Source: Phnomibacter ginsenosidimutans (GTDB lineage: Bacteria; Bacteroidota; Bacteroidia; Chitinophagales; Chitinophagaceae). Taken from it: a DNA stretch of 32,000 nt. This document shows positions 1,850 through 29,426 of the stretch, piece after piece (the first letter of the stretch is position 1; each line of letters opens with the position of its first letter). The stretch is taken from NCBI RefSeq assembly GCF_009740285.1, contig NZ_CP046566.1:3044658-3076657 (forward strand), given 5' to 3'. The notes beneath the pieces are model-generated. The model did not search any database. It saw nothing but the letters and a program-made list of their open reading frames with translations, and was not told the origin of the DNA. A program made the position numbers and the translations under genes.

Positions 1850-2545
1850 TTAACTTTTATCGAATAACGATGTTTGAGCTTCCCCTCTCATTATAAAGGA
1901 AAAGCACTTCTCCATAGTTACTAAACCAATACCAGGCTCATTTATCAGGTTGATCATTGACTTGATAGACTTATTTTCAATAACGGTGGTTATTGTATTT
2001 ATCCTGTCCTTCCTTATACCTGTAACCTTTTGAATTTGGGCAGAACTAAATGAGCCCCATTTAACAGCAAATGATTCAAATAAATCATCCGGTGCTAATG
2101 GATCATACTCAAATATTTCGACCGGAATTTCACATTTTGATAAATAGCTTGACATAAGCTGATATACCTCATCTCTATCTAAGCCACCATTATGAGCTCC
2201 AAGTAAAGGAAAGGCAATTGATTCAATGCCTTGAACCTTGTATGTATCAAGAAATTTTTGAAGCCCTTTTTCAACGTATTCTAATTTGCTGGGATATTTC
2301 CAATGGAATTTTGTAGGAAAATTGAGAACCCAGGGTGCATCCGGCTCACCTTTATATAACCATAACTTACCAATTCCAATGAGTTTTGACTTGCAATGCT
2401 CTTTATACAAATCAAACATTTTCGGATACCTTAGCTTGTAAACCAAAGCTATTCCTTTCCCCATTACCCCAACGCAGTTAACGGTATTAACCACTACCTG
2501 TGCCTTTGTATTAAATATATTTCCTTTTACTAACTCTATTGCCAT
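1850..2545 (-). CDS. DarG-like macrodomain protein (putative DNA ADP-ribosyl glycohydrolase / antitoxin), short form with a C-terminal HhH-like tail
   Basis: 231 aa. GNIFNTKAQVVVNTVNCVGVMGKGIALVYKLRYPKMF and NFPTKFHWKYPSKLEYVEKGL closely match the DarG macrodomain signature as I recall it (NTVNCVGVMGKGIAL...; FPTKxHWxxPSKL). The start lies 1 nt after the stop of the DarT-domain gene. Confidence 0.8.
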   Translation of the reverse strand: MAIELVKGNIFNTKAQVVVNTVNCVGVMGKGIALVYKLRYPKMFDLYKEHCKSKLIGIGKLWLYKGEPDAPWVLNFPTKFHWKYPSKLEYVEKGLQKFLDTYKVQGIESIAFPLLGAHNGGLDRDEVYQLMSSYLSKCEIPVEIFEYDPLAPDDLFESFAVKWGSFSSAQIQKVTGIRKDRINTITTVIENKSIKSMINLINEPGIGLVTMEKCFSFIMRGEAQTSLFDKS

Positions 2546-2546
2546 T

Positions 2547-5500: not shown

Positions 5501-5804
5501 AGTCTTTACGATTACAAATAGCACTAAAGTTCCAAGGAAATGTTTCATTTAACTCAACTATAGAGATATTATCAATAGAATGGGATACATTTTCATAGCC
5601 GGCTTGATTTTTAACTAAGTTGTTAAATTTTTCAAATAGGACTGATGACCACTTGAGATTTTGATTTGCTTCAATTCCCGGAATCTTTTCATTGCCCCAA
5701 AACAATAAGTCATTGTCAGATAGAAACTCAAATATTTCTGAATTTAAAATTACATCCTGATCCCTTCCAATTTTGAAGTTGGTTCTTTTGAGAGAATTAA
5801 TCAA
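2547..5804 (-). CDS. Large repeat protein with a DarT-like (DUF4433) ADP-ribosyltransferase domain near the C-terminus
   Basis: 1085 aa with a TTG start in the track. Residues ~35-770 carry about 20 repeats with the core W-[DN]-[WYF]-x-x-[LI]-S (FWDWSLV, TWDWNYIS, KWDWHILSS, PWDWEKLSS, PWDYHALSS, DWDYNLLS, QWNWSLLSS and others). Residues ~783-965 (nt ~2910-3458) match DarT motifs: IYHFTHLTNAIEIIKNKKILS (YHxTH), HEFARFYFRPQTP (VPFYF-like) and QQEFLIKDEFDF...IDIIVRS (catalytic-Glu AEFLV-like). A ~120-aa C-terminal extension (nt ~2550-2909) has no motif I recognise. The true 5' end is uncertain (see finding at 5805-6071). Confidence 0.8.
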   Translation of the reverse strand: MINSLKRTNFKIGRDQDVILNSEIFEFLSDNDLLFWGNEKIPGIEANQNLKWSSVLFEKFNNLVKNQAGYENVSHSIDNISIVELNETFPWNFSAICNRKDLKWSSEFIRKHQDKLALNILINSVPSELVADNLAFFIQWAVEKEMLVIISKHVSTEFTFEQILLNRELLNSHNIAINWVSVLREASVESLNEIVLSDENELLQLPSAEGLRNYLSEKCELDFILDNPDLFWDWSLVTKNRISSELLLDDDFQVEYASYIHWPYLIDKFVSAIDLTPTNKLQSLAVLISQSPESVINESWSVITKKILPNDLWKFIQETIQFDIFTWDWNYISSSKVIPIDHSFLSTYSDKINWKVLSSNSTLSSFFQFSKVVYRDTRQWLDRTLEYLYAYKDEWDFTALSSINNITWNERIISEFEDKWDWHILSSASALLTNSNKEKRITEFDSRRLNRFSSLIDWGALSVRYEVTLYPALVSKFINYPWDWEKLSSHPRFELTKEFVLENGSKPWDYHALSSHSFLKVDKELLLQLQDKDWDYNLLSKASWIDNDTLLTLSDKQWNWSLLSSSKNLLFDLNLLSLFVQHTDSNWHAILNSDSIHITPDVIKLFVSNNVLNNDLWATLSSHQNLDFQQHPELLLEYKSKWDWMSFIKNWKLDFNDITILTTYQDLIEWNLLCESEKFSPSPEILLKFKEFLNWKIISGMLVFDINGLRLFKDFLDWEYISQNTSINFTVEMVDEFMMYWDYFYLQENISIPLSIREHIIQIVNSIPELELYLNLKSKQSSWSGYIYHFTHLTNAIEIIKNKKILSRNKAIGFADAAGAVVGRRHTAHEFARFYFRPQTPTQFYNECLGLDITNKYYESALRLGLPKCPIPVFFRFNLQEVLLKLRGKCYMSNGNMQTNWAVVKPVLQMLSKFNFSDVYSTIFNTSDGDYRTYINYSQQEFLIKDEFDFTSFINIDIIVRSENDKDELIRRIGEKSQYANRIKVSSYSDDIYHNQNKDIECEYRDGILNISTDYSGNGYKSGMFIVQFPSGTKYEMISGNVINATESMICAYPSLNIKFENHTSLKVYFQDEIKNTKWELYNLN

Positions 5805-6022
5805 ATAAGAACCGAATTTAGGGTCGTTGAATGATAATTTAAAATCAGACTCATTTTTAAGTAACCTGTTAACTACTGCAATAGTGTCAATGTATGGAAA
5901 TAGAGCTTCAATATTTAGAATGAAATAATTTATTGAATACGTAGAGCAGATAAGTGACCAATCCCAGCTTAGCTGGGGGTTATTAAGAATTAAATTGCCT
6001 GACTGTATTTCTCCAAAAGATA

Positions 6023-7264
6023 TTAGCGTGTGAAGGTCAAAGGTAATGTTTGAATTTCCCTTTCGATAAATTCAAATGAAACTCTATTTGTAACTTTTTT
6101 CCAATCTTCAATTGCATAAACATCAATAATGGTTGTTAATAACTGTTCCAGTTCTTTTTGGTCAATTCTTTCCAAAAACACATCAATATCCCAAGGAAAT
6201 TGATTGATGGTATTTATAATGTATGGTATTTCAACTTTCTTTGAAAGGCGAGACCAGTCCCAGTAATCCGCATAAGCTTCGATATTCAATATCAATACTT
6301 CATCAGGACAATTCTGTATTACCTGATACCATACTGCGTTACTTGTAACTTCTTCACTTGATAACAATTCAAACCAATTGTTATCCCATACTACTCTTGA
6401 ATCACACAGCACTGTTTGCCAATTGACATGTTTGGTGAATTGGGAAATATCTGCCGCATGTATTTCTTTAATATCTCTAAGATATAACTGATAACGGAGC
6501 AACAGAAGCCAATCAGCAAACAATTTTGAATTTGCTTCTTTTAAAATTATTTCATCTAATTCAGGCGAAGGTTTGTCATTTAAAACTACTTCTATTCTGT
6601 AAACTTCATCCTCTTTTATTAAGGAAAGGGATATGTGTGAAATACTTTTTTCATAATTAAGCACCGCCTCATTTACCCATTGAATTTCAATATTCTTATT
6701 CTCTTCCAGTTCTGAATTAAAATTTAGAAGTGCCTTGTGAAGAAATACATTTTCATGCTGGTCTTCAGGACTAAAATAGTAAGGCTTTATTTCCTTCGAA
6801 TTATATATTTCAGAAAAAAGGCCATACTTAGAAAAATGAAATAGATTGTCAAAATTTTCCCAGTCAAAGAGAAGATAATGCTCATTAAAACTGATAACAC
6901 CTTCGTAAAACAAGTGCTTAACTCCTTTTTGTCTTGCTTCTAACCCCCAATGGGTTGTAGAAATAATCAGATTACCATCTTCATTTTTATGAGTTGATAT
7001 CAAATGATATTCTGTAAGTGTATCAAGTAATGAAGAGAATATTCCAGCTTCAGCTATGTCAAAATACACCTGCTCCTCTTCATTGGCTTCAACAGCAAAA
7101 CCTAAAATGGAGCCTAATTCATTATAACCAATTGTATCATTATACAAGTACAAAAATGAAAGAATAATATTGTCAAACTCAGTGAGAGGATATGCCTTTC
7201 TAAAAAGCACCTTATGCTTTGCAACCCTAATTGGCCAGTCCTCTTTTATCGTTATAAGATTCAT
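6023..7264 (-). CDS. Hypothetical protein with the same W-D-W/LS repeats in its C-terminal third
   Basis: 413 aa. The C-terminal part carries HVNWQTVLC, NNWFELLSS, DYWDWSRLS, FPWDIDVF and IEDWKKVT, the same repeat core as the downstream DarT-domain protein. Its ATG overlaps the helicase stop (ATGA at 7261-7264), implying translational coupling. Confidence 0.75.
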   Translation of the reverse strand: MNLITIKEDWPIRVAKHKVLFRKAYPLTEFDNIILSFLYLYNDTIGYNELGSILGFAVEANEEEQVYFDIAEAGIFSSLLDTLTEYHLISTHKNEDGNLIISTTHWGLEARQKGVKHLFYEGVISFNEHYLLFDWENFDNLFHFSKYGLFSEIYNSKEIKPYYFSPEDQHENVFLHKALLNFNSELEENKNIEIQWVNEAVLNYEKSISHISLSLIKEDEVYRIEVVLNDKPSPELDEIILKEANSKLFADWLLLLRYQLYLRDIKEIHAADISQFTKHVNWQTVLCDSRVVWDNNWFELLSSEEVTSNAVWYQVIQNCPDEVLILNIEAYADYWDWSRLSKKVEIPYIINTINQFPWDIDVFLERIDQKELEQLLTTIIDVYAIEDWKKVTNRVSFEFIEREIQTLPLTFTR

Positions 7265-10200
7265 TGTTTTAAGGATTTGGCATCAAATGATTTTACAGCA
7301 CCATTAGGATGTTGCTGAATTGTTTCATAAACCCTGTTATAAATGGCATGTTTTCTAAAATGCTGAGAATTGCCAACAATTATTAGTAGCCTTTTTGCCC
7401 TGGACAATGCCACATTCAGACGATTGGGAAATTCTGCAAACCCTAAACTTTCTTGGGATGGATAACCATTCTCTGGGTACGCTTCCATATTAGGAGCCTG
7501 ATTTGGAAATTCAGCTATGGAATTGCTTCTAACCAATGATACTACTACAATATTCCTCTCCATGCCTTGAAAACGGTCAACTGGCGAGATTCTTAGCGGA
7601 ACTTCGGGATACTTATCCTTCAACTTATTTAGTAACCCAGCTTGAGCACCGTAGAAAGTAATTATGCCAATTTGCTTCTGCTCTATATCACCTGATGGCC
7701 AATAATCCACAAAGTTTTTATATCCGGGTGATTTCTTGAAATAACTTAAAAGCCAATCAATCGCCTGAACTTCTCCATAGTTAACTCTGGATGTACCGCT
7801 TTTTATTTCCGGTGATACTACATCAAGCCAAATAACATGTGTTTGTTTGTTGGCTGTAACACCATGATAGCGATTCAGCGGATGTGACATATCTTCCGAA
7901 TTGGCTATCTCATCTGGAATACCACATTCTAAACCTCCGTCAGCAATATAAAACTGTTTTATAGTTTCATTTATCGCTGGATGCATTCTGTATTGGACAT
8001 TAAATGAGGACTTTAAGTTTTTATCAATTCCAACAAATAACTTTTCAAAATGGGATACTGAAAATTCCTCTTTGTTTTTCTTAATATAACTTATAAGGTC
8101 ACTGATTTCCCTTCTGTTTTTTTCATCTTTCGTTTTTTTCGACATCATTTTAAGATTATCGATAAACTCAGCAGTATCGACCATTGGAGGCAACTGTCTA
8201 TGATCGCCAATTACAACAGCCTTTTTTCCGTAGAGGCATGGTAATGCTAATTCAGGAGGTGAGGCTTTACTCGCCTCATCCTGTACAACAAGATCAAACT
8301 CAATGTTTCTTTTCTTTAATGCAGCAATAGTGTTCTTATTTATAGAATGACGAAAAGCATCATATTCTTTGGTGTGTAATACATTGCAATAGTCTGAGAA
8401 GAATCTTGTAAATTTCTGTTCTGAATTTTCTTTACCAATTGAACTACAAGTTGCTCCTATTACATTAGCATTTTGTATGTAGTTATTAAAAAATAACGAC
8501 CGTAATTGCTCATTTGCCTTTGTCAGATAGGTTATCCACTTTTCAGATAAATCGCTGTTAAATGTGGTTTGTTTTCTCCTTGCCCTATTACCGATTAAAG
8601 TAATCCAGTCTTGTAAAATATTAGTAGCTGATTTATCTTCAGTCAACTCCTTATTGCCAAATAGAACCCATTGTTTGAGGGATTCCAATGAAAATCTTCT
8701 TCCTTCTTTATCCAATTTGTCATCAGAGCCAAACCTAATTGGTTTAATTAATAAATGTGTTTGGGCCCGGAGTTTATCTAATGCGTTATCAACAGCAAGG
8801 TTAGTCTCTGATGTGACAAGAATCCTATATGGCTCTTTCTTAACAGAAATATTAGAACGGATGTGTTGCCATATCAACTCCGCAATTGCTGTAGATTTTC
8901 CAGTACCGGGAGGACCTTGTATTAGAAAAAAGTCATTTGCCAATAGGCACTTTGCAATCGATTCTTTTTGCCGGTCATTAATGTTTTTCGAAAGCAATGA
9001 AGCATCAATTTCATTGATTGTTTTTTCGTATTCAGCAGTACGTAAAATATCACCAGGGAAACTTCTGGCCTTTGATGAATCCACTAATATATCCCGGAGG
9101 CTTTCATTTAATATCTTCTGCTTAGTAATTGAAAATATAATGTCAATTGTATTTGATAGTCTTTTTATTTTATCCCTTTCGCCCTTTAAAGTGCAGCAAA
9201 CTTTAGTCAAAGTATCTGGAACACAAATTGTATCCCTCATTGATTCCATTTCAATCACAATATTGGGATAGCTAATCTTTATAATATTCCCGAAAGGGAC
9301 AGGCTTTTTATCATCCCACAAAGAAATTTCCTCACCTCTTATGTAATTAAATTTGCTATTGATTTCAGCCTCAAATTCTTCTTGTTTAAAGTTTAGAAAA
9401 TATTTTAGTTTGCCTTCTTGCAGTTCTTCAAATACATACTGCATATTATCATTCAATAGCGGATCAATTGAATCTTTTATTTTTGCAACAAGTAATTGCA
9501 ACAAGTCATGATTGTCAAAAAAGCAGAAGAATGATAGTTTTAAACCATTGTTAGACAATTTAGTTTTGATGGCCGGTATTTGCTGTAATTCCTCCTGTAT
9601 TTCCAATAAAGGTGAGGCATATTGTAACTTTATCTTAAAACCATGCTCAGCTCCCTTGTTGTCAATATCTGCAATCTGTAATGCTGATAAATATTCAATT
9701 CCAGAAGTTAATTCATCTTCATTAGTGAAGTCAAATGAAACTGTTTCCTTCTCAACGCTAATATTAAAGCGTTCATCCTGAACAGAATTTTGGAAATGTT
9801 CCAAAAATAAACTTCTATCAATTTGAAATATGTGTTGGTGCTTTATAGTAAAAGAATCGGGACCAAAATATCGTTCAAATACTTTCTTGTAATGAAATAT
9901 CTCAAAACGAAAATCTGATAAAGTAATATCTGATTCAAATGTTAGGTGAAATTCATTATTTATTGGTGTTGGGAGAATCACACCCATTTTATCGTTCTTC
10001 TTATCTTCAGAAGAAAAGAATATCTTTTTAGATTTTCTTGTATCCAAAAAATTCTGAAATAAATCTTCCTTTATTGTGAATATTAAGCGATGGTGAGATT
10101 TGTGATAAGCAGTGTTTTCTTTTATAAAGTTTAGTGCAGGTTCCCTTAAAAATATATCCTGAATAATCAGATTGGCAAAATGACCGTGACAAGAGACAGA

Positions 10201-10770
10201 TTGAATACCTAATGTCTGAATTAAATATGAACTTGCGATTTCATATTGCTTTTGTATATAGTATTTAGAAGGCTGGATTTTAAAGATGCCTCCAATAACA
10301 GCTGAACGGGTAAAGCCATTTAGACTTTGTATTTTATCATCAATTCGCTTTATGTCTGAAAGAGTGGCAACTATTTGACCTTCCTTGTTAGGCTGTTGCT
10401 CATTTATGTCAGCTAACCATTTGTATGGATTTTCTTTTAAACTTACATGACCTGAAAAACATGGCTTATAATCAAACTCAAAATAATTTGCATCCGCTAC
10501 TTCTTTTAATTCATCTGTATGCTGTGGACTTCTGGATGAGTTATACAGTAAATAGCCATCCTTAATATTTATATCGTTTTGTAAAATCCCAGGAAAGGAT
10601 TTTTCTAATGAATGAATAATACTTGAGAGGGGATTTCTTTGTTCGATTGTGAAGTGAGCCAATCCAGTTTTATCCGTCTTTTTAAACTCAATTGCAAATG
10701 GTTCTGAATACTGATTAACGAATATTTCTTGAGCTTTAATAAATGCTTTCCAGCTGTTGATTGTTGACAT
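7261..10770 (-). CDS. Superfamily 1 helicase, Upf1/DNA2-like (AAA_11/AAA_12 class), with a ~580-aa uncharacterised N-terminal region
   Basis: 1169 aa. Motifs seen: Walker A LIQGPPGTGKST, motif II VVQDEASKA, motif III VIGDHRQLPPMV, then NVQYRMHPAI, IGIITFYGAQ, VDRFQGMERNIVVVSLVRSN and NVALSRAKRLLIIVGN. Confidence 0.9.
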   Translation of the reverse strand: MSTINSWKAFIKAQEIFVNQYSEPFAIEFKKTDKTGLAHFTIEQRNPLSSIIHSLEKSFPGILQNDINIKDGYLLYNSSRSPQHTDELKEVADANYFEFDYKPCFSGHVSLKENPYKWLADINEQQPNKEGQIVATLSDIKRIDDKIQSLNGFTRSAVIGGIFKIQPSKYYIQKQYEIASSYLIQTLGIQSVSCHGHFANLIIQDIFLREPALNFIKENTAYHKSHHRLIFTIKEDLFQNFLDTRKSKKIFFSSEDKKNDKMGVILPTPINNEFHLTFESDITLSDFRFEIFHYKKVFERYFGPDSFTIKHQHIFQIDRSLFLEHFQNSVQDERFNISVEKETVSFDFTNEDELTSGIEYLSALQIADIDNKGAEHGFKIKLQYASPLLEIQEELQQIPAIKTKLSNNGLKLSFFCFFDNHDLLQLLVAKIKDSIDPLLNDNMQYVFEELQEGKLKYFLNFKQEEFEAEINSKFNYIRGEEISLWDDKKPVPFGNIIKISYPNIVIEMESMRDTICVPDTLTKVCCTLKGERDKIKRLSNTIDIIFSITKQKILNESLRDILVDSSKARSFPGDILRTAEYEKTINEIDASLLSKNINDRQKESIAKCLLANDFFLIQGPPGTGKSTAIAELIWQHIRSNISVKKEPYRILVTSETNLAVDNALDKLRAQTHLLIKPIRFGSDDKLDKEGRRFSLESLKQWVLFGNKELTEDKSATNILQDWITLIGNRARRKQTTFNSDLSEKWITYLTKANEQLRSLFFNNYIQNANVIGATCSSIGKENSEQKFTRFFSDYCNVLHTKEYDAFRHSINKNTIAALKKRNIEFDLVVQDEASKASPPELALPCLYGKKAVVIGDHRQLPPMVDTAEFIDNLKMMSKKTKDEKNRREISDLISYIKKNKEEFSVSHFEKLFVGIDKNLKSSFNVQYRMHPAINETIKQFYIADGGLECGIPDEIANSEDMSHPLNRYHGVTANKQTHVIWLDVVSPEIKSGTSRVNYGEVQAIDWLLSYFKKSPGYKNFVDYWPSGDIEQKQIGIITFYGAQAGLLNKLKDKYPEVPLRISPVDRFQGMERNIVVVSLVRSNSIAEFPNQAPNMEAYPENGYPSQESLGFAEFPNRLNVALSRAKRLLIIVGNSQHFRKHAIYNRVYETIQQHPNGAVKSFDAKSLKQ

Positions 10771-10936: not shown

Positions 10937-11437
10937 CTTCATAAATAATTTATTAATAGTATTTTATACTTAGCAAAATGCATACAAATAAGTATTTTAA
11001 ATTGTAGTTGTATTACCAAATACAATTCCGAGAAATTTTTCTTAAACCAGTTAATGCGAAAGCATCCTTTTACAATGAAATAATAAATATTATACCCTTT
11101 CAATTATACTTAGATAATCGCATCTGCCAATTAAAAATAAATAGATAAAGCAATTCATACAGACTATTACAACTATCACCAAAACAAAACTTGTTGCGAT
11201 TTCAAACAATAATTGTCAGAAAAATATGGTTAACTATTTTAATACACTGCCGGTGAGCTGACACCAGTATTGGGTGAAAGCAAAAAGTGTCAGGCCAAAA
11301 CATCACAAATCGAATGATAGCAGGGATAATGAGGTTTGTCAAACGCAATTTAAGTGTATCAGGCTGAAGAATTATCAGAAAAGCTATTTTTTACCGCGGA
11401 TACTTGGCCAGGGTATTTTCAACGTTTTCGCATCATC

Positions 11438-13063: not shown

Positions 13064-13393
13064 TCATCCAAATACGATCAAAAGTTTCACAAGCCTTTTT
13101 TCAACCTGAAGAATTAGCCTGTTGAATACCTTGTCCTTTCCATCCCAAAAAATGGCGGCCCCATTGGCATTTTTAAGTAATAGTTGCATCGATCTCAATG
13201 ATTTTATTGGATAGCCCCGCCTACAAGCATAACGTAATATCAAACCATTGGGGTCGGTTTTGGGACAAATGAGTACTTGAATCCCGCTATAACCAGATTC
13301 TAAGCTGTGAAGAGCTACCCATTCATCAACGGTAGCTGACAGAAATGCGTAATCGTGAAAGCTCTCAGAAGTAGCAATGATCAGTCTAAACAT
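13064..13393 (-). CDS. Small SLOG/DUF2493-like protein (tentative)
   Basis: 109 aa. IQVLICPKTDPNGLILRYACRRGYPIK...AAIFWDGKDKVFNRLI resembles the C-terminal half of DUF2493/SLOG proteins (..aFWDGkSkGT..). The match is weak and motif-level only. Confidence 0.35.
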   Translation of the reverse strand: MFRLIIATSESFHDYAFLSATVDEWVALHSLESGYSGIQVLICPKTDPNGLILRYACRRGYPIKSLRSMQLLLKNANGAAIFWDGKDKVFNRLILQVEKRLVKLLIVFG

Positions 13394-13444
13394 TCGATGG
13401 CTGATGTTTTGATAGAATGGTATACCTCGAAATTCTAATTGGCG

Positions 13445-13463
13445 ATTGTAATGAGATTACAAT
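13445..13463. promoter_or_regulatory. Perfect palindrome ATTGTAATGAGATTACAAT, candidate operator (copy 1)
   Basis: 8-bp inverted arms with a 3-bp spacer, located in the divergent region between the 13393(-) and 13502(+) starts. A near-identical copy lies at 16098-16116. Confidence 0.6.
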
Positions 13464-13501
13464 GCAGCGCTACACTTTTACATTCTCAAAAAATTAGACC
13501 T

Positions 13502-14197
13502 ATGCCTCAAAATGAAGTAGAATCTCATCCTTATTTGGATATCCAAATGTCTAAAGCAAATTTTCATCATGGAAGTTTCACTACCCTTCTACTGGGCACT
13601 TTTCCCATTTATGAGCTCACCAAATCTGAGCCAATTGAAGCAGCAGGTGTAACCAAACGAACAGAATGGACACAACAAGCAAATTTCAAATTCTTCTACG
13701 GCAGCAAGGGTAATTCCTTCTGGAAAATACTGGCCAATATTGCAGGAACTGAATTCCCCTCCAGTACAGAATCGTGTCTGAAGATACTTGCACAACAAAA
13801 TATATTCATAGGAGACGTCATCGCATCTGCCTCAAGAATTGGTTACAGTTCCAAAGACCAAGATTTGACTATTAATAGCCTGAACCGGGCTCTACAAAAC
13901 ACACTTGACTCGCTTACTTCAATTCAACAGATTGTATTTACAAGTGATGTAGCAAAAAGAGTATTCACTGAAATCATAGGAATTCCGAACGCAAGAAGAA
14001 TTCAGACAATGAACCTGAATAATCGCAACATTAGCATGTATACATTACCCACACCTGCGGGCAACGGTAGATCGGTCCGTAGATTTTTTAAAGATTTCCC
14101 TCCAACTGCAGAAGAAATAGTCTTGATTGAAAAAAAGCTCCCTTATGCTTTGGCATATCGTGAAAGACTGTATCGTCAGTTTCTGCAGGTAATCTAA
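13502..14197 (+). CDS. Uracil-DNA glycosylase superfamily protein (family-6 / deoxyinosine-glycosylase-like)
   Basis: LLLGTFP...FFYGSKGNSFWKILANI and the C-terminal YTLPTPAGNG resemble UDG-superfamily motifs A and B (GSfPs...YYg...NxFW; lPStSpAN). I placed the start at ATG 13502. The track start 13439 is a non-ATG codon upstream of the palindrome, so an ORF from there would read through it. Confidence 0.55.
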   Translation: MPQNEVESHPYLDIQMSKANFHHGSFTTLLLGTFPIYELTKSEPIEAAGVTKRTEWTQQANFKFFYGSKGNSFWKILANIAGTEFPSSTESCLKILAQQNIFIGDVIASASRIGYSSKDQDLTINSLNRALQNTLDSLTSIQQIVFTSDVAKRVFTEIIGIPNARRIQTMNLNNRNISMYTLPTPAGNGRSVRRFFKDFPPTAEEIVLIEKKLPYALAYRERLYRQFLQVI

Positions 14198-15216
14198 CCG
14201 TTTATTTTATTGCCATATAGTGTCAAGACAGCCTTGGCCGATGATATCATTTTTTCAGCTAGCCAGGCAGGCTTTAAAACCTTTACTGCAGGCCCGTAGC
14301 TGAGAATCAGCATTTCCAATTCTGGACTCGTATAAACATACAAGTCGATTAGTAGCGATTTGCCATCGTTGGTTAAAGTGGCCTTTTGGCTATGATGGAG
14401 CGGATTGGCTTGTATTTGTGCTATAAAATCATTGAATTCCAATTGGATCAGCTCGGGGGCTTTTTCATGCCAGTGCCAAACACCTATACTGTATTTGAAA
14501 TAGTCAGTTGGTGAGAAGTCGGGATCCACAAAATACGGTTCATCACAAGTCTCCACATTTCGGATGGAACTCAGTGAAAAAACAAGTGTTTTATGAGGTG
14601 AACTCGATTGGTGAGCATATGCGACTAGATACCAGCGATCATGAAACTGTTTGAGCAAATATGGTGAAACAACCCGTTTCCTTTCTTCCGTATCCCGCAT
14701 GCTTTTATAGGTCATCAAAAGTGTGCGGCCCTCAATAATAGCGGTCAATAAAGGATGAATCCAAATTGCACCACTATCGTTTTGTGCAGCATTAAAAGCA
14801 ACAATTTGTTCCGTCACCTTTCGTAAGCTACCAGAAGCATTTTCGTTCAGCACTTTTTGAACAGTCTGAGAAAATTTCTCCTGCAATGGCGACCCTGCGA
14901 AAAGGCCAAAAACACTAGCCGCAATAGTGAAGAGCTGTTTGTCTTCGTCGGAAATAAAATCTTCGAATACTTTGTACCCCTTTTGGGTATAATGATACCC
15001 ATCTGAAACGGTGAACTTAACTGTTACATTATCAACATCGGCCAATTCATTAAGTGACTTGATGTATTTGCTCAACATGTCCTCACCTATTTCATCTCCA
15101 CCCTTCGCAGTCACCAAATCATTGAGCAACGAAACGAATTCCTTTCGGCTATTGATCTTCCTGCCACTGGACAAGAGATAATCCATAACACGCAAACGGT
15201 AGTCGCTGAAGTTCAT
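14194..15216 (-). CDS. WYL-domain transcriptional regulator (HTH-WYL-WCX architecture)
   Basis: VVSPYLLKQFHDRWYLVAYAH...LVFSLSSIRNVE is a classic WYL domain. The C-terminal LILSYGPAVKVLKPAWLAEKM looks like a WCX domain. I placed the start at ATG 15216 (MNFSDYRLRV); the track begins at TTG 15258. Confidence 0.8.
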   Translation of the reverse strand: MNFSDYRLRVMDYLLSSGRKINSRKEFVSLLNDLVTAKGGDEIGEDMLSKYIKSLNELADVDNVTVKFTVSDGYHYTQKGYKVFEDFISDEDKQLFTIAASVFGLFAGSPLQEKFSQTVQKVLNENASGSLRKVTEQIVAFNAAQNDSGAIWIHPLLTAIIEGRTLLMTYKSMRDTEERKRVVSPYLLKQFHDRWYLVAYAHQSSSPHKTLVFSLSSIRNVETCDEPYFVDPDFSPTDYFKYSIGVWHWHEKAPELIQLEFNDFIAQIQANPLHHSQKATLTNDGKSLLIDLYVYTSPELEMLILSYGPAVKVLKPAWLAEKMISSAKAVLTLYGNKING

Positions 15217-15370
15217 AATAGACAGTTGTTTGGCTTTTCGAAAAAATTGATACAACAAAGTGATTAAATCAAATATACAGATGTGCCGGTATACGATTCA
15301 TTTGAGACTCAACACGCATTACATCAATTCCAAAAACATTATACCACAATTTTTTGAAAAGCTTTCTAAA

Positions 15371-16060
15371 CTAATGAGAAGGTGTTTTATCCGCTTTATA
15401 CCTCGATTCAAACAACCTGGTATAATTAAGTTCATTCAGGCACCTTACATACACAAAGCCTTCTGAAGTAAACACAGCCTCCATGCTTTTGGCTAGCATA
15501 TCATTGGTTTCCTCTACCCTTTTATGCTGAAACAACAGCCTGGACAAACTGAGATAGCTCTTAGATGAACCTATCAAGAAATGCATGTTTGTGCTATCTG
15601 AAGCAGTAATCACTTCGATTAGTCGCTGCTTTTGCAGATTGCTTTTTGCCAGCAGTAAATCAACGAAATCATCTATCACAACAAAAAATGGAGTAAATAT
15701 TGTATTCGGCTGTTTTGACAACTGACTCCTACGATCTTTAGCCACATTGGTTATTTGCTTGATGAAACTGTCTCTGGAAATGCTCAAATCGCCTTCTGCA
15801 GAACGCCACATGCAAATGGCGCCATTGCGTTGAATGACATCTTCACCGACCGATTGCAACACCTTATTGGATGAACAAATGGCTAAGTTACTCCCAGGAA
15901 TATGAGTAGCTATTTGATGTACTGTAGAGGTAATAATCCGAATCTGAATTTCTGGATTACTGAAAGACAAAAACAGCCTTTCGTTTTCATGGAGGCCAAC
16001 TGCAAAAGGCTCACCGGTACTTTTTAATCCTATTTCTAAGAATACTTTCACTTGCTGCAA
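15371..16060 (-). CDS. Hypothetical protein resembling an FtsK/HerA-type motor domain but lacking Walker A
   Basis: 229 aa with a TTG start. LEIGLKSTGEPFAVGL..., TPFFVVIDDFVDLLL (Walker-B-like, compare vvviDEfADLm) and NMHFLIGSSKS (compare GIHLilATQRPS) follow the order of FtsK motor motifs. I see no GxxxxGK[ST]. This rests on recollection and needs a profile search. Confidence 0.4.
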   Translation of the reverse strand: MQQVKVFLEIGLKSTGEPFAVGLHENERLFLSFSNPEIQIRIITSTVHQIATHIPGSNLAICSSNKVLQSVGEDVIQRNGAICMWRSAEGDLSISRDSFIKQITNVAKDRRSQLSKQPNTIFTPFFVVIDDFVDLLLAKSNLQKQRLIEVITASDSTNMHFLIGSSKSYLSLSRLLFQHKRVEETNDMLAKSMEAVFTSEGFVYVRCLNELNYTRLFESRYKADKTPSH

Positions 16061-16097
16061 GTTACGTGTGTACTGGCGAATTACTACCGGATTATTG

Positions 16098-16116
16098 ATT
16101 GTAATGACATTACAAT
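16098..16116. promoter_or_regulatory. Perfect palindrome ATTGTAATGACATTACAAT, candidate operator (copy 2)
   Basis: Same 8-bp arms and 3-bp spacer as copy 1. It lies 38 nt upstream of the 16060(-) start and 45 nt upstream of ATG 16161(+). Confidence 0.6.
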
Positions 16117-16160
16117 CCCGTCATATATTCTTGCATTAACCGATTCAAACACACTTGACT

Positions 16161-16856
16161 ATGACGTATGACCAATTGCCAATAGTAGAGCGAATATTCA
16201 ATCTCACTGAGATGAACGCTTTTCATAAAAAATATAATTTGAATTTCAATTACCCTGAGTACCCTGATTATTTATATTTCATTGTTTACATTGATGGTCA
16301 TAAGCCAACTATATTATTCTTTCGTTCGGGCACCGAAAATCGGATTGGTTGGATTTGCCCTAAAGGAATGAATGCGGCTGAAGGTCTATCTCTATTGCCG
16401 TCACATGATTACCATTCGATGCTTCTATTCGCTTCCTTTTATTTAAGCGAAAGTGCTGATAAGTTTTATACCATCCTCAGAAAAAGCAGTGAGTTATATC
16501 AAGGTACTTATTATGATTATGTGTTTGCTCCTACCTATGGCTTTATGGCGTTTGCTGAGCAATTTTCTGAATTATATAGAATTTTCACGGGTGCAAAAAA
16601 AGCAGATGCCGATCAAGTTGTTGTGGATTGGAATTTGAATAGATATGATACAAGAGCAACTATAAGAAATACAGCTGATGAAAATGGCGTCCTATTTAGG
16701 GACGTGATACAAAATAGATTCTTTGATGGCGCCCATTACGTTTTCAGACCCAACTACAAAGCAGCCCATCAACTATTAGCTTTACTTCATGAGTATAGGC
16801 TATTAAAACCATCAATATTGTCAGATACAAAAAGCCGCTACTTCTGGGCATCTTGA
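16161..16856 (+). CDS. Hypothetical protein with apparent similarity to the palm/fingers segment of DNA polymerase III alpha (DnaE)
   Basis: FFRSGTENRIGWICPKGMNAAEGLSLLPSHDYHSMLLFASFY and APTYGFMAFAEQFSELYRIFTGAKKADAD...HYVFRPNYKAAHQLLALL line up, from my memory of E. coli DnaE, with [38 protein letters not shown] and [29 protein letters not shown]...YGFNKSHSAAYALVSY. The protein is only ~230 aa, the size of a single domain. The track starts at TTG 16155. Confidence 0.35.
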   Translation: MTYDQLPIVERIFNLTEMNAFHKKYNLNFNYPEYPDYLYFIVYIDGHKPTILFFRSGTENRIGWICPKGMNAAEGLSLLPSHDYHSMLLFASFYLSESADKFYTILRKSSELYQGTYYDYVFAPTYGFMAFAEQFSELYRIFTGAKKADADQVVVDWNLNRYDTRATIRNTADENGVLFRDVIQNRFFDGAHYVFRPNYKAAHQLLALLHEYRLLKPSILSDTKSRYFWAS

Positions 16857-16893: not shown

Positions 16894-17175
16894 ATGTATT
16901 TAAGAATATACCAGCTTACAATGATTATCGCCTTTTTAGGCTACCATTTTCTGCCAGAATGGACAATACAATCGGGGGGGATTGGCGGACAACAATTGAC
17001 CACAAAGCACTTGTTTTTTTTGTATATCACTGTAAGTGGATTTTGGTTTATATATAAAATGAGAAAGCACCCACCTTATGACATCATGTGGAACATCTTG
17101 CTGATTTTTATAATCGTGCTGACTGGCAGACTTTTAACAGGTTACGTTAAGTACAAATTCAAAGAGAAAGATTAG
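16894..17175 (+). CDS. Small integral membrane protein (hypothetical)
   Basis: 93 aa with 2-3 hydrophobic helices (IIAFLGYHFL, LFFLYITVSGFWFIY, ILLIFIIVLTG). No recognisable family. Confidence 0.45.
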   Translation: MYLRIYQLTMIIAFLGYHFLPEWTIQSGGIGGQQLTTKHLFFLYITVSGFWFIYKMRKHPPYDIMWNILLIFIIVLTGRLLTGYVKYKFKEKD

Positions 17176-17388: not shown

Positions 17389-19290
17389 ATGCCAATAGAA
17401 AAAAAGCTTCCAATGCTCTCGAAATCCGATTATCAACTTGCCTCTGGTTGTGCTAAGAAACTGGTATATAAAAAAGAGGGTTATCCAACGACTAATGACA
17501 CGAATGAATACATGGAAATGCTTGCACAAGGGGGCTACATTGTCGGAAAGATGGCCACTTTATATTATGAAGATGGAATAGAGATTGAAGGAACTACAAA
17601 AGAATGCGTTCAGCAAACACTCGAACTATTGAAACAGGATCATGTAACACTTTTTGAAGCGGCTATTCAAAGCGGTCAAAAAATTGTCCGAATTGATATC
17701 CTCATTAAAAGGGGTCAGGAGTTGCAATTGATTGAAGTAAAGTCAAAGTCCTATGCTTCAAACGATCCCAAGTCGATCAAGCAGTTGGATACATACATTG
17801 AAGATGTCGCCTACCAATATCACGTACTGTCAGAACAGTATCCAAATCACAATATTTCCAGTTTTCTTTTCTTACCCGACAAATGTTTGTATACCGAAAT
17901 TGATGGGTTAGCAGGATGGTTTTCAATTGAACCGAACATATCTGAAATAGAAGATGAAAACCCAGATATCATCACGCAACAGCAAACAAGATTTAAAAAA
18001 CCTGTTGTACGTTTCAAATACGAGCATCACCAAGTTAAGGAGTACTATGTAGCATTTTTGAAACGTCATAGAATACTGACACAACTCAACATAACAGATC
18101 AAGTTAAAGCCTTGCAACCAGTTGTCGAACAAAAGGCTGCTAGATACTTGAGGATTCTGAACCAGGGAATAGCCAATGAGGACTTTAAGATTTCGAAGGA
18201 TTGTAAAGCATGTGAGTTCAACACACCTAACGAATCTCAGAATGGATATGCTGAATGCTGGGGAAACATAGCTTATCAGGACCATCATATTTTCGACTTG
18301 TTTTTTGGCGGCGCTGTAAAAAATACACAGAAAGAATACTACTGGAATGAATTAATCAATCAGGAAAAAACACATCTGTTTGATATCGATACAGCTGTTT
18401 TGCGTGGAGACAAAGACGAATTGGGCAAAAGGGCTCATAGGCAGCTTTTACAAATACAAAAGACAAAAGAGAATACAGAATGGAAATCGGAAGCTTTACA
18501 CTCCTTTATTGATTCACTGAAGTATCCATTACATTTTATTGATTTCGAAACGTATACTGGCTCAGTTCCCTTTCACAAGAACATGCGTCCTTATGAAATA
18601 ATCGCATTTCAATGGAGTTGTCACACGATTCCATACAAAGGCGCAACTCCAATACACAAAGAATGGATACACACTGGTTCGCAATTTCCTGATTCAAATG
18701 CTTTTCCCAATATTGAATTTGCCAGAGCATTGATGAAACATATTGGATATACGGGCACAGCTTTTATGTGGGCAACACATGAAAACACTGTTTTGTCAGC
18801 AATACTTAACCAAATAGTTAACAGCGACAATAAGGATCCTGAATTAGAGAAATGGCTAACAGACATCACCAGTGATAAAGCCAGCAAACGCAAAGGCCGC
18901 CTGATTGATATGAATCAACTCACCATCCAATATTATTTCCACCCATACATGAAGGGTCGGACTTCAATTAAAAAAGTACTGCCGGCAATATGGAGCCATT
19001 TCCCATACCTGCATCAGGTTCCTCATTTTTCTAAATATTCACCTGACAACTGGAATACTGGGATTATAGATCCTTACGACAACTTGAAAGCGTTAAACAA
19101 CGTAGAAGATATAGATAGCGATGATGTTGTGGCTGGAGGAACTGATGCCATGCGAGCCTATCAAAGAATCCGTTTTGACAGCAACCTTTCTCAAACCCAG
19201 AGAGCCTCCATCAGAAATCAACTTCTCGAATATTGTAAGCTAGACACCATGGCGATGGTAATAATTGCGTATCACTGGGGAATCAGATAA
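17389..19290 (+). CDS. DUF2779-family protein with an N-terminal PD-(D/E)XK (Cas4/RecB-like) nuclease motif
   Basis: 633 aa. MLSKSDYQLASGCAKKL..., RIDILIKRG...LQLIEVKSKSY (D...E-x-K) and YPLHFIDFETY...PFHKNMRPYEIIAFQWSCH match my recollection of DUF2779 proteins. Confidence 0.65.
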   Translation: MPIEKKLPMLSKSDYQLASGCAKKLVYKKEGYPTTNDTNEYMEMLAQGGYIVGKMATLYYEDGIEIEGTTKECVQQTLELLKQDHVTLFEAAIQSGQKIVRIDILIKRGQELQLIEVKSKSYASNDPKSIKQLDTYIEDVAYQYHVLSEQYPNHNISSFLFLPDKCLYTEIDGLAGWFSIEPNISEIEDENPDIITQQQTRFKKPVVRFKYEHHQVKEYYVAFLKRHRILTQLNITDQVKALQPVVEQKAARYLRILNQGIANEDFKISKDCKACEFNTPNESQNGYAECWGNIAYQDHHIFDLFFGGAVKNTQKEYYWNELINQEKTHLFDIDTAVLRGDKDELGKRAHRQLLQIQKTKENTEWKSEALHSFIDSLKYPLHFIDFETYTGSVPFHKNMRPYEIIAFQWSCHTIPYKGATPIHKEWIHTGSQFPDSNAFPNIEFARALMKHIGYTGTAFMWATHENTVLSAILNQIVNSDNKDPELEKWLTDITSDKASKRKGRLIDMNQLTIQYYFHPYMKGRTSIKKVLPAIWSHFPYLHQVPHFSKYSPDNWNTGIIDPYDNLKALNNVEDIDSDDVVAGGTDAMRAYQRIRFDSNLSQTQRASIRNQLLEYCKLDTMAMVIIAYHWGIR

Positions 19291-19892
19291 GTCCCCAAGA
19301 CAAAAGCAACTCAATAAAACTCTGAGCTGTGTCAGCAGAGCGACTGCCTGAAAGCCGGAGCGTACAGGCCCGCAGCTGAGGGTGGCCAGCCGGCGGCGCA
19401 CAAAAAAGCGGTGGAGGCCCGATGGCTGTAGCCGTGCCTATCCTGCAGTGCAGCGACCGCTGACTGCAGCTGTAGTGAGAGTGGAGCCAACGAAGCCTGG
19501 CCAATGGATGGGTATTGTGCGGTGGGCTTGGCAGGCGCAGTGCAGCGAAACGGAACGGAAGCGAAAGGAAGTAAGGGGGCCAACCAAGGTAGGCTGGGCT
19601 GCAGCCAGAAAGGGCCGGACGGCGGCGACCTGAGGGCTGCCAAAAACCATGACAGCCTTCGGAGCTTGCGGAGCACCCGCAGGGCAGCATGGCTCTGCTG
19701 CACAAAGCTGCGTGTGTTGGCCTGCAAAAGTGCCATGCCGGGCTGGCGAGGTTTTTGTTGGCCGACCGATGAAAGACCGCCGACCTTTTGTAAGGACACA
19801 CTCCTGCCCACACTATCCCAGCAGCATAGAGCGACGAAATGTTTGGGTAAGAAAAAGGAAAGATTTGGTAAAGTAAAAAACGATGGGGACTT
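19291..19892. other. GC-rich, apparently non-coding block (candidate large structured RNA or degraded foreign DNA)
   Basis: G+C rises sharply by eye. ORFs overlap on both strands in several frames, and none has protein-like composition. Local hairpins: CTGCAGT-N13-ACTGCAG (19443-19469) and GCAGCA-tggctc-TGCTGC (19684-19701). Direct repeat GCAGTGCAGCGA at 19445 and 19537. AAGTCCCCA (19289-19297) is complementary to TGGGGACTT (19884-19892). Confidence 0.4.
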
Positions 19893-21871: not shown

Positions 21872-21987
21872 AACTGTGGTTTTATGGAATAAAGAAAAAA
21901 GACAGTGAACTAAGCCCTACCAAAACAAGTAAGGGATTGGTAAATGGATGGTAAGGTGTATTTTAGGAGTCTTAAATAGGTTTTTCA

Positions 21988-22017
21988 TTTTTAGCGCAAT
22001 CCAGATTGCGCTAAAAA
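21988..22017. promoter_or_regulatory. Perfect 13-bp inverted repeat TTTTTAGCGCAAT-ccag-ATTGCGCTAAAAA
   Basis: The stem AGCGCAAT/ATTGCGCT is flanked by T5 and A5, the shape of a bidirectional intrinsic terminator. However, it sits between divergently oriented genes at a composition junction, about 80 nt upstream of the ATPase gene. Confidence 0.45.
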
Positions 22018-22099
22018 TGGAATTGATTTTCAATGAATTTGGATTGTTGAATTTCCCCTATTTCTGAGTTGTGGCAATGCTTTTGGAACACTCTAAACT

Positions 22100-27114: not shown

Positions 27115-27398
27115 GATACAAGTTTACTATGTAAAATACCAACCTATTTGCGAAGCGGATTTTGCCGTTAGCCGAATAGCAGGACTAATCGGCTCATAGC
27201 AATAAAAAAATAGCGATCACCTTTATGGCATAACCTGCAAAGGATTTGCAACAGCTATTGGAAATTGGCGCCTTTATACCAGCCGGAAACGCAGACGGAA
27301 GAAGTACCAGCTATTTGTTGAATAGGTGAGGATACTTTGCAAATAGACTGCAATCATTTGCAGGGAACTTTGTTCCCTTTCAATAAATCCAACCCGGT

Positions 27399-29262: not shown

Positions 29263-29339
29263 GCACTTTTCCAGAAACTCAAATAATGTATAAAACGTTG
29301 ATTTGCAGCGTTTTGCAGCGTTTTTCGCAGTGTAAAAAG

Positions 29340-29426
29340 CAGAGAGGAAGGGATTCGAACCCTCGATACAGTTTCCCGTATACCCGCTTTCCAGGCGAGC
29401 CCCTTCAACCACTCGGGCACCTCTCT
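29340..29426 (-). tRNA. tRNA-Ser (anticodon GGA)
   Basis: The minus strand reads AGAGAGG-TG-CCCGAGTGGTTGAAGGGG-CTCGC-CTGGAAA-GCGGG-long variable arm-GAGGG-TTCGAAT-CCCTT-CCTCTCT-G. It is a class II tRNA with cloverleaf pairing checked by hand. No CCA is encoded. Confidence 0.9.

Follow-up and report, generated by a model that had tools for sequence, protein, structure and literature searches.

A conserved palindrome, the probable operator of a neighbouring WYL regulator, points to a previously undescribed gene switch, probably of the DNA-damage type, in Chitinophagaceae

For the sensing of DNA damage and phage attack, WYL regulators increasingly stand out as the chief alternative to LexA; all characterised examples in the papers searched come from Proteobacteria, Actinobacteria and Firmicutes. 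DriD of Caulobacter crescentus is a wHTH-WYL-WCX activator of an SOS-independent DNA-damage response. Its operator, CGAC-N7-GTCG (PMC12392091), overlaps the -35-equivalent position of sigma-73 promoters that have no upstream element, and only the target side of the divergent driD promoter is activated (PMC13004042). In mycobacteria, the WYL proteins SiwR and PafBC activate transcription by sigma adaptation from the -26 region (PMC10693628), and their binding element is fused to the promoter box downstream of it with a constant spacing (PMC10693628, PMC11804915); PafBC, which forms a heterodimer or fusion, uses an asymmetric site. DdaA, an activator of DNA-damage and anti-phage genes in Moraxellaceae, recognises CGWCA-N5-TGWCG (PMC12392091). 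It has taken the place of LexA, and its targets include recA, uvrA and similar genes together with Cas and RM genes. In contrast, BrxR and CapW repress BREX, CBASS and other defence systems. The Bacteroidetes, including Chitinophagaceae, possess LexA-like SOS repressors that combine a phage CI-like HTH with an S24 peptidase and bind the palindromes CTAA-N5-TTAG and GGA-N5-TCC (Sanchez-Osuna et al., 2021; PMC8565304).

The window, a 32-kb stretch of DNA, contains ATTGTAAT-N3-ATTACAAT exactly twice. Copy 1 (13445-13463) reads ATTGTAATGAGATTACAAT, which is ATTGTAAT-GAG-ATTACAAT, and copy 2 (16098-16116) reads ATTGTAATGACATTACAAT, which is ATTGTAAT-GAC-ATTACAAT. Both consist of perfect 8-bp arms around a 3-nt spacer, as the original prediction had described them, and both are located in divergent intergenic regions. 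The conserved core, TTGTAA-N5-TTACAA, spans 13446-13462 and 16099-16115; these two occurrences of a 12-base core compare with 0.003 expected from 1000 dinucleotide shuffles of the window. No further match to the palindrome with two or fewer mismatches is present elsewhere in the 32 kb, and the two matches with three mismatches lie at 3826 and 11001. Copy 1 lies in a 108-bp gap, 51 nt from the start codon of a 109-aa gene (13064-13393, minus strand) and 38 nt from the ATG (13502) of a UDG-like gene on the plus strand. Copy 2 lies 37 nt from the TTG start of a 229-aa gene, gene E (15371-16060, minus strand), and 44 nt from the ATG (16161) of a 231-aa gene, gene F, on the plus strand, so that the proposed position about 40-50 nt upstream of both genes of each pair is borne out. 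Copy 1 is identical in one sister-strain contig (L001) and copy 2 in another contig of the sister strain (L143), and the flanking bases vary. Two degenerate candidate sites are assigned with low confidence. One (27337-27353, plus strand, TTGCAAATAGACTGCAA) has 3 of 12 core mismatches and lies 45 nt upstream of an ORF (27399-27812) whose homologue in L127 carries a perfect composite of operator and -7 box. The other (11002-11018, minus strand; 2 of 12 core mismatches) lies about 230 nt upstream of an MkoA-like helicase operon, with its TTTG displaced by 1 nt and out of phase.

The regulator gene (14194-15216, minus strand, 340 aa) lies between the UDG-like gene and gene E and encodes the predicted operator-binding protein. 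The WYL domain (PF13280) matches residues 169-236 of the 354-aa ORF with an E-value of 6.8e-13 (48.9 bits against a cutoff of 21.8), and residues W195-Y196-L197 align with N191-Y192-L193 of DriD. The WCX extension (PF25583) is matched with an E-value of 1e-9 (39 bits against 23.9). No Pfam HTH domain matches the N-terminus, for which the AlphaFold2 model (overall pLDDT 82) predicts three helices (residues 3-16, 24-37 and 45-62) and a β-hairpin (66-76) at a pLDDT of 82-92. Foldseek aligns about 343 columns of the model to full-length DNA-bound DriD. The protein is thus predicted to have the wHTH-WYL-WCX (class A) architecture. The best full-length structural matches are DriD (8tp8, E = 1.7e-13) and PafBC (9fnd, E = 8e-12), followed by BrxR and CapW at about 1e-7; the sequence profile ranks these relatives alike, with 6sj9 (2e-12) and PafB (8e-12) ahead of BrxR and CapW (2.7e-4 and 1.7e-3), and over both comparisons DriD and PafBC fall between 1e-13 and 1e-11. 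By the E-values of sequence and modelled fold, the protein appears nearer to DriD and PafBC than to the repressors, which makes the comparison with these activators apt, and the promoter geometry agrees (PMC13004042). Identity to DriD is about 17-18%. Among the residues with which DriD contacts ssDNA (PMC10853764), R176/R178 correspond to R179/R181, Y192 to Y196, W206 to F213 and Y240/H241 to W247/H248, whereas R204, R207, R288 and S172 have no equivalent. Because only part of these contacts is kept, the ligand may differ. The single WYL gene and the symmetric palindrome imply a homodimer, unlike the PafBC arrangement.

To follow the motif beyond the window, 16 non-redundant loci encoding WYL homologues (numbered with the prefix L) were compared. 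Their 205,954 bp contain 25 exact copies of TTGTAA-N5-TTACAA, where 200 shuffles gave a mean of 0.055 and never more than 1. Allowing one mismatch gives 41 unique sites; almost all of them lie between genes, as a rule 20-60 nt away from a start codon, and the core accompanies WYL homologues down to about 28-40% identity in Chitinophagaceae contigs. The same gene families stand next to operators in different loci with the gene order shuffled. They comprise the DnaE-like gene F (in four loci), the gene G membrane protein, SLOG, DUF2779 and gene E families, a 560-aa AAA ATPase, a UvrD-PD-(D/E)XK helicase-nuclease, an ADP-ribosylglycohydrolase and an ATE_C-like protein. The footprinting proposed as a check of the motif thus yielded the same intergenic core before F, G, SLOG, DUF2779 and E homologues. 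A scan of metagenome contigs for the exact composite of operator and promoter box recovered at least 120 loci; among the matches listed, about 20 contain either these families, in most cases immediately downstream of the site, or the WYL homologue itself. In one locus (L022), the WYL gene and the G-like gene are each preceded by the same variant element, ACGTAATTATATTGCG, a hint that the operator co-varies with the protein. No canonical SOS, Cas or RM genes were seen behind the motif in the examined loci, in contrast to the DdaA regulon. The loci also contain no S24/CI-like gene, and their motif is neither of the two that mark LexA-like regulons. RecBCD genes are found further down one regulated operon (L010). 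Motif-like arrays in two metagenome contigs (L072, L123) look like tandem repeats without a relation to the regulon. These comparisons predict TTGTAA-N5-TTACAA to be the operator conserved across a small subfamily of wHTH-WYL-WCX proteins that is confined to Chitinophagaceae. The proposal that the palindromes serve a dimeric regulator, with the adjacent WYL protein as by far the best candidate, is supported as a prediction, since the motif follows WYL homologues and the same gene families. The idea of a private two-site mini-regulon does not hold; the window carries a local piece of a variable, family-wide regulon with up to 13 sites in 17 kb elsewhere. As for DdaA, a lineage-specific regulon is found through motif conservation, repair genes are tied to defence-rich islands (PMC12392091), and the palindrome has a 5-N5-5 form (TGTAA-N5-TTACA).

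The distance between operator and promoter box is fixed. Across the family the composite reads TTACAA-N10-TAnnTTTG, in which TAnnTTTG is the Bacteroidetes -7 box; the consensus at offsets 11-18 after the core is T (61%), A (86%), n, n, T (72%), T (94%), T (75%) and G (69%), and TTG begins at offset 16 in 20 of 36 sides. A -7 box score of at least 4/6 is reached by 31 of 34 gene-facing sides, compared with 4.6% at control offsets. This phase would place the operator centre near -31, the geometry reported for DriD and PafBC, with a span of roughly -39 to -23 under assumed TSS positions. Three sides in the window are in phase, each with an imperfect candidate box. For copy 1, these boxes precede the UDG-like gene (13471-13480, plus strand; CACTTTTA at offsets 11-18, 4/6) and the SLOG-like 109-aa gene (13428-13437, minus strand; GAATTTCG, 4/6). 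For copy 2, the box precedes the F-G operon (16126-16133, plus strand; TATTCTTG, 5/6). On the opposite side of copy 2, towards gene E and the WYL gene, an in-phase -7 box is missing. The original proposal that both genes of a divergent pair are regulated is therefore supported at copy 1; at copy 2 it is supported for the plus side and unsupported for gene E. The WYL gene has a perfect -7 box of its own (15270-15277, minus strand; TATATTTG) about 54 nt upstream of its ATG with no operator upstream of that box, and its promoter is thus probably operator-independent. Autoregulation, the most economical arrangement in the original prediction, is accordingly not supported in the window. Some Bacteroidetes have a -33 element that is weak or cannot be detected (PMC7366714), so little can be concluded from the lack of one here.

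Copy 1 is predicted to serve the 109-aa gene and the UDG-like gene. The 109-aa protein itself has no Pfam match. Its SLOG/YAcAr-like label follows by transitivity from an L002 protein with a Pfam YAcAr match, to which it is 28% identical (E = 2.7e-13) and whose gene likewise lies 38 nt from an operator. The 231-aa product of the second gene (13502-14197, plus strand) has matches below the curated cutoffs to Pfam UDG (E = 0.0026) and to the hypoxanthine-DNA glycosylase family TIGR04274 (E = 5.8e-11), which gives weak to moderate support for a UDG-superfamily label; homologues are present in L001 and L004. Gene E adjoins copy 2, and its regulation by this copy is uncertain because an in-phase -7 box is missing. 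Its FtsK/EssC-like label is weak (EssC, E = 0.0011), and members of its family lie within operons of regulated genes in L002, L014 and L015. Gene F (16161-16856, plus strand), the predicted target of copy 2, encodes a stand-alone protein whose family profile matches locally the fingers region of DnaE (Pol III alpha residues 669-770; E = 7e-5 and 1.8e-5), and its homologues lie directly downstream of operators in six loci (L005, L008, L014, L040, L082, L085). Gene G (16894-17175, plus strand), probably co-transcribed with gene F, encodes a 93-aa membrane protein with three hydrophobic segments as read from its sequence. Its family is the most widespread in the regulon, with 10 members in 8 loci, mostly directly behind an operator. 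A 633-aa DUF2779 protein (Pfam; 17389-19290, plus strand) follows after a 213-bp gap without a site of its own and is a possible downstream member of the F-G operon; its L015 homologue (57% identical), encoded divergently from the WYL gene, does have an in-phase operator. Among the labels given earlier, WYL is thus firm and SLOG-like stands by transitivity, whereas the UDG-like, FtsK-like and DnaE-like labels carry the limits given above. The window lies in a defence island with DarT/DarG-like, MkoA-like and AAA_15 genes, the DarT-like toxin being encoded 8 kb away. A link to these surrounding genes found no support, since no site with at most one mismatch lies upstream of the DarT/DarG-like, MkoA-like or AAA_15 operons in the window.

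The reading we favour, with a probability of about 0.6, is that a homodimer of the adjacent WYL protein binds both palindromes and most likely activates the flanking genes through the composite promoter TTGTAA-N5-TTACAA-N10-TAnnTTTG in response to ssDNA or a damage signal. In this promoter the operator, at its fixed distance from the sigma-A -7 box, would take the place of the -33 element. The signal would be a nucleic acid, probably ssDNA that arises from DNA damage or from invading DNA; it would be bound between WYL and WCX, and the signal-bound protein would recruit RNA polymerase to promoters without a usable -33 element. Copy 1 would then drive the SLOG-like and UDG-like genes in both directions and copy 2 the F-G operon in the plus direction, possibly reading into DUF2779, while the regulator would be made from its own operator-less promoter. 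The analysis itself shows the motif and its excess over chance, its occurrence together with the WYL subfamily, the target families held in common, the constant phase to the -7 box and the domain architecture. Three elements of the proposal are what we infer here: the WYL protein as the operator binder, activation over repression, and ssDNA or damage as the signal. By analogy with DriD, activation is the most likely role; both systems have a homodimer-type palindrome with an AT-rich centre, which keeps a constant distance from the -10/-7 element and overlaps the -35-equivalent position, target promoters without an upstream element, and divergent promoters at which only the target side is in phase (PMC13004042). 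As in PafBC and SiwR, which resemble the protein in WYL and WCX, a binding element is joined to the promoter box at fixed spacing and the targets are of the DNA-repair type. The operator sequence, the TAnnTTTG promoters and the different, mostly uncharacterised target genes set the system apart from DriD, and its phylum and sigma factor differ from those of PafBC and SiwR.

The foremost alternative, which we regard as unlikely, keeps the same protein and operators and makes the protein a repressor of the BrxR/CapW type: a dimer on -39 to -23 would block RNA polymerase, and ssDNA or another ligand would de-repress the flanking genes. BrxR and CapW share the wHTH-WYL-WCX architecture and act as repressors on palindromes in divergent promoters; ssDNA releases CapW (PMC11662680). 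The defence-island setting resembles theirs, the operator covers part of the region in which sigma would touch a -33 element, and in L014, L015 and L019 only a few to about 25 nt separate the site from the start codon of the WYL gene, on which it would act negatively there. A fixed phase to the -7 box would also suit a repressor that occludes the -33 region, but the rigid spacing seen here, precise to one base in more than 30 unrelated promoters, is known from promoters that depend on DriD and PafBC (PMC13004042) and is not required by a repressor. Sequence and fold are nearer to the activators by 4-6 orders of magnitude in E-value. The two features that mark BrxR and CapW, an operator in the regulator's own promoter and an adjacent recognisable defence operon under the motif, are both missing in the window.

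That a different factor encoded elsewhere, for example of the Crp/Fnr type or phage-repressor-like, binds the palindrome with the WYL gene a mere neighbour or target is improbable. The lack of an operator at the WYL gene in the window and of any site within the examined DNA of two WYL-homologue loci (L013, L018) would fit such a factor. Against it, the WYL gene is the only DNA-binding gene common to the loci, most of which have a site directly beside it; the sites cluster within a few kb of this gene (13 in 17 kb in L014, the highest count); the palindrome geometry fits known WYL operators (PMC12392091); and Bacteroidetes LexA-like motifs differ (PMC8565304). Most improbable of all are non-regulatory copies such as mobile-cassette ends, recombination sites, small hairpin terminators or a chance repeat: the two palindromes do flank a 2.65-kb segment (UDG-like, WYL and E genes) that has, in its interior, a 7-kb indel relative to the sister strain, and the tandem-repeat-like arrays mentioned above exist, but the copies lie between gene starts rather than gene ends, transposases and target-site duplications are absent, the indel junction (15226-15407, between gene E and the WYL gene, where L001 has about 7 kb with 9 genes including a PP2C phosphatase) is away from the palindromes, chance predicts 0.003 per window, and promoter-box phase and kept gene families would be left unexplained. 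A cassette-end or repeat reading is effectively refuted by the motif excess, intergenic placing, fixed phase and shared families.

The favoured activator switch is probably of the DNA-damage type. Because most regulon proteins belong to no recognisable family, this role rests on a minority, namely the UDG-like protein, the UvrD-nuclease, DUF2779, ARH/NADAR and the RecBCD adjacency in L010. The targets, nearly all uncharacterised, include the DnaE-fingers-like protein, gene G, the 560-aa AAA ATPase, the AddA-like helicase-nuclease and the ADP-ribose removers ARH and NADAR. The last two hint that the regulon may answer ADP-ribosylation of DNA by toxins of the DarT type. The DriD regulon also contains a small membrane protein, the division inhibitor DidA of Caulobacter, and by this analogy only, gene G could be a damage-induced division inhibitor. 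In contrast to Moraxellaceae, where DdaA stands in for LexA, Chitinophagaceae keep a LexA-like SOS regulon at CTAA-N5-TTAG, which shares with the present one the dyad-N5-dyad form and UDG-type and repair genes among its targets (PMC8565304). More tentatively, the protein may be a Chitinophagaceae-specific, DriD-like ssDNA-sensing activator, the first of the WYL-type, -35-replacing kind described for a Bacteroidetes sigma-A promoter, with a regulon that would form a second circuit for DNA stress alongside the LexA-like SOS system.

For this Bacteroidota lineage, the locus offers a sequence-defined operator, a promoter grammar and a candidate target list, which make the system directly testable. 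About fifteen protein families without known function gain a regulatory context, among them a free-standing, fragment-like homologue of the fingers domain of the replicative polymerase. If the activator model is true, activation from a fixed -31 site would work with the divergent Bacteroidetes sigma factor.

Two palindromes flank the WYL gene of the window (14194-15216, minus strand), which encodes a 340-aa regulator with WYL and WCX domains. Copy 1 (ATTGTAATGAGATTACAAT, 13445-13463) occupies the 108-bp gap between a 109-aa SLOG/YAcAr-like gene (13064-13393, minus strand) and a UDG-superfamily gene (13502-14197, plus strand). Copy 2 (ATTGTAATGACATTACAAT, 16098-16116) lies between the 229-aa gene E (15371-16060, minus strand) and the 231-aa DnaE-fingers-like gene F (16161-16856, plus strand), which is followed by gene G for a 93-aa membrane protein (16894-17175) and a DUF2779 gene (17389-19290). 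The shared core, TTGTAA-N5-TTACAA, occurs twice in the window versus 0.003 expected from 1000 dinucleotide shuffles, and no further match of the ATTGTAATGAGATTACAAT/ATTGTAATGACATTACAAT type with fewer than three mismatches is present elsewhere in the window. The closest relative of the WYL protein (97% identity) was found in Logan run SRR19851456; both copies are conserved base for base in two contigs of a 97%-related strain, and the neighbouring bases vary. Two degenerate palindromes were also observed, one with two core mismatches (11002-11018), upstream of the MkoA-like operon by about 230 nt, and one with three core mismatches 45 nt upstream of an ORF at 27399-27812 (27337-27353). In L127, a metagenome locus, a homologue of this ORF has a perfect operator together with a -7 box.

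The motif accompanies the regulator. The WYL subfamily is rare (32 clusters in 5.8 billion proteins) and, in the species-representative genome collection, is confined to Chitinophagaceae/Chitinophagales (Chitinophaga, Sediminibacterium, Pollutibacter and unnamed MAGs). We compared 22 loci around WYL homologues, 16 of which are non-redundant (206 kb), with ORF starts called crudely. The exact core occurs 25 times in the non-redundant loci versus 0.055 expected. With at most one mismatch there are 41 unique sites, up to 13 of them within a single 17-kb locus, and these precede recurring gene families. Nearly all sites are intergenic, 20-60 nt from a start codon, and in most loci one site adjoins the WYL gene itself. 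Within the DNA searched around the WYL homologues, no canonical site was found in L013 (Pollutibacter soli), L018 or L022. L013 contains other repeats, and L022, whose WYL homologue shares 41% identity, carries the variant ACGTAATTATATTGCG twice (L022:150-200 and L022:3820-3850); one copy is upstream of its own WYL gene and one upstream of a G-like gene, which may reflect co-variation of operator and regulator.

To characterize the promoters, 36 gene-facing sides were aligned on the palindrome. Offsets 11-18 past TTACAA read T(61%) A(86%) n n T(72%) T(94%) T(75%) G(69%), a Bacteroidetes -7 box in one fixed place that corresponds to the sigma-A(Bfr) consensus TAnnTTTG (PMC7366714, PMC2483708). 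TTG is found at offset 16 in 20 of the 36 sides and in no more than two at any other offset, and the box matches at four or more of six positions in 31 of 34 sides versus 4.6% at control offsets. With the box taken to lie at about -12 to -5, the operator would cover approximately -39 to -23 and be centred near -31. Divergent pairs either share a single site with a box on either side or carry two, some 45 bp from each other, with each one in phase with the side it serves. A side facing the WYL gene is never in phase except in L004, in which the WYL gene lies downstream of a regulated AAA gene. In the window, candidate -7 boxes are in phase from copy 1 towards the UDG-like gene (CACTTTTA, 4/6) and the SLOG-like gene (GAATTTCG, 4/6) and from copy 2 towards F (TATTCTTG, 5/6), and no in-phase box is found from copy 2 towards E and the WYL gene. 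A perfect box of its own (TATATTTG, 15277-15270) precedes the WYL gene, and no operator lies upstream of that box. The proposed autoregulation of the WYL gene is therefore not supported in the window. The broader proposal, that the WYL protein would control the genes on either side, is supported by the association of the motif with WYL homologues, the recurrence of the same families and the fixed phase.

The AF2-predicted structure of the regulator (pLDDT 82) consists of a wHTH, a helical linker and the WYL and WCX domains. Its best structural matches are full-length DriD on ssDNA and DNA (E 1.7e-13) and PafBC on RNA polymerase (8e-12), with BrxR and CapW behind at about 1e-7; a sequence-profile search gives the identical ranking. 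RNA polymerase at the divergent driD promoter faces the target operon only (PMC13004042), and the -26 region is where SiwR and PafBC act from (PMC10693628). By analogy, the promoter pattern here is the DriD/PafBC grammar transposed to Bacteroidetes promoters. We consider it probable (about 0.6) that the WYL protein would be a ligand-activated activator acting at these composite promoters. A repressor that occludes the -33 element is an unlikely alternative, since the order of the fold and sequence matches, together with a fixed-phase grammar as in DriD, SiwR and PafBC, favours activation. A -33 TTG at 19-nt spacing is absent, and we give this little weight as a sign of activator dependence given that some Bacteroidetes have a weak -33 element (PMC7366714). 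Two other readings of the palindromes, as hairpin terminators and as mobile-element ends, were dropped: the copies sit between gene starts, there is no transposase or target-site duplication, the rearrangement junction (15226-15407) lies elsewhere, and neither the promoter-box phase nor the downstream families would be explained. For the putative activator, the DriD residues R176/R178, Y192, W206 and Y240/H241 have the equivalents R179/R181, Y196, F213 and W247/H248, and R204, R207, R288 and S172 have none (residue list from PMC10853764); judged from sequence, the ligand is uncertain.

The gene families behind the sites reappear from locus to locus in varying order. F homologues are present in four loci, each immediately behind a site; the family is seen at window 16161-16856 and also at L005:3776-4435, L008:8623-9291 and L014:3304-3945. 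Its members are stand-alone proteins of about 220 aa that lack PHP and palm domains, and their profile matches the Pol III alpha fingers (E. coli residues 669-770; E 7e-5 and 1.8e-5). A word-index homology search with F retrieved one near-identical protein only; the family is rare, with 23 representatives among 1.84 billion proteins in an exhaustive search. The AF2 model of F was set aside (2-sequence alignment, pLDDT 46). G is the most widespread target family, with ten members of 60-118 aa in eight loci, and we speculate, by analogy with DidA of the DriD regulon, that it might be induced by damage and inhibit division like DidA or SidA. The SLOG/YAcAr gene, the E family, DUF2779, a 560-aa AAA ATPase, a 970-1000-aa UvrD-PD-(D/E)XK helicase-nuclease, an ADP-ribosylglycohydrolase (ARH), NADAR, an ATE_C/GNAT-like protein and several unannotated families also recur behind sites. 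Most regulon proteins have no match in Pfam, NCBIfam, PHROGs or PADLOC; DUF2779 is weakly related to PD-(D/E)XK domains by PADLOC (E 4.6e-4). NADAR/ARH genes were noted at L016:1925-2527, L082:2974-3447, L005:10843-11766 and L008:5669-6616.

An exact scan of metagenome contigs with the 18-base composite TTGTAA-N5-TTACAA-N10-TAnnTTTG returned at least 120 loci. About 20 among the matches listed carry the same families or a WYL homologue, mostly directly downstream: the AAA ATPase (L036, L059, L062, L076), the UvrD-nuclease (L102), ARH with NADAR (L082), F (L085), G (L109, L125), fam190 (L110) and fam207 (L038). Among the matches listed, no site has a canonical SOS gene (recA, uvrA or the like) directly behind it. 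Most of the loci listed come from AT-rich contigs, where the pattern falls within ORFs by chance, and intergenic matches near dapA, a glycosyltransferase and the like were treated as chance. Two loci contain arrays of three to five motif-like palindromes (L072:96-198, with a 43-bp period, and L123:2671-2920, irregular) and no regulon gene family; these are probably tandem repeats unrelated to the regulon, with the core in common by coincidence.

The surroundings resemble an integrated island, with a Bacteroidetes-type integrase (27906-29126) beside a tRNA-Ser (29339-29426) and a cargo that includes an AAA_15 ATPase. A minus-strand run of low GC (0.32) at 1850-10770 encodes a 231-aa DarG-like macro protein, a 1085-aa protein with a C-terminal DarT domain, a 413-aa protein of no assigned family and a 1169-aa MkoA-like SF1 helicase; this apparent composite defence cluster has no good WYL operator. 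A rearrangement junction lies between E and the WYL gene (window 15226-15407 versus L001:118-7203): the sister-strain contig L001, 95.5% identical in DNA on both flanks, contains nine genes there in about 7 kb, a PP2C phosphatase among them, versus only 182 bp in the window. Identity to L001 also stops within the SLOG gene, at 13204. Immediately past the DUF2779 stop codon, about 480 nt are GC-rich (19310-19810; ~60% versus 38% around); this stretch has no credible ORF and no Rfam match, and its RNA fold z-score of just -1.8 (plus strand) is not convincing. A near-perfect palindrome with 13-bp arms (TTTTTAGCGCAAT-CCAG-ATTGCGCTAAAAA, 21986-22019) lies about 80 nt upstream of the AAA_15 ATPase gene (22100) and may be a bidirectional terminator or a further operator.

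The recognisable regulon members point to DNA transactions, as indicated by the UDG-like glycosylase, the AddA-like helicase-nuclease, DUF2779, the regulated operon of L010, which runs on into recD, recC and recB, and the ADP-ribose-removing enzymes. Given the recurrence of NADAR and ARH and the DarT-domain gene in the window, the regulon may be tied to undoing DNA ADP-ribosylation. There are precedents for the protein family, palindromic operators and fixed-phase activation; the lineage, motif, sigma context and targets are new within the literature searched, of incomplete coverage, in which we found neither the motif nor a Bacteroidota WYL regulon described. The motif is distinct from those of DriD (CGAC-N7-GTCG) and DdaA (CGWCA-N5-TGWCG; PMC12392091), and from those of the Bacteroidetes LexA-like repressors (CTAA-N5-TTAG in Chitinophagaceae and GGA-N5-TCC; PMC8565304), so the WYL regulon would constitute a second circuit beside the SOS-like one.
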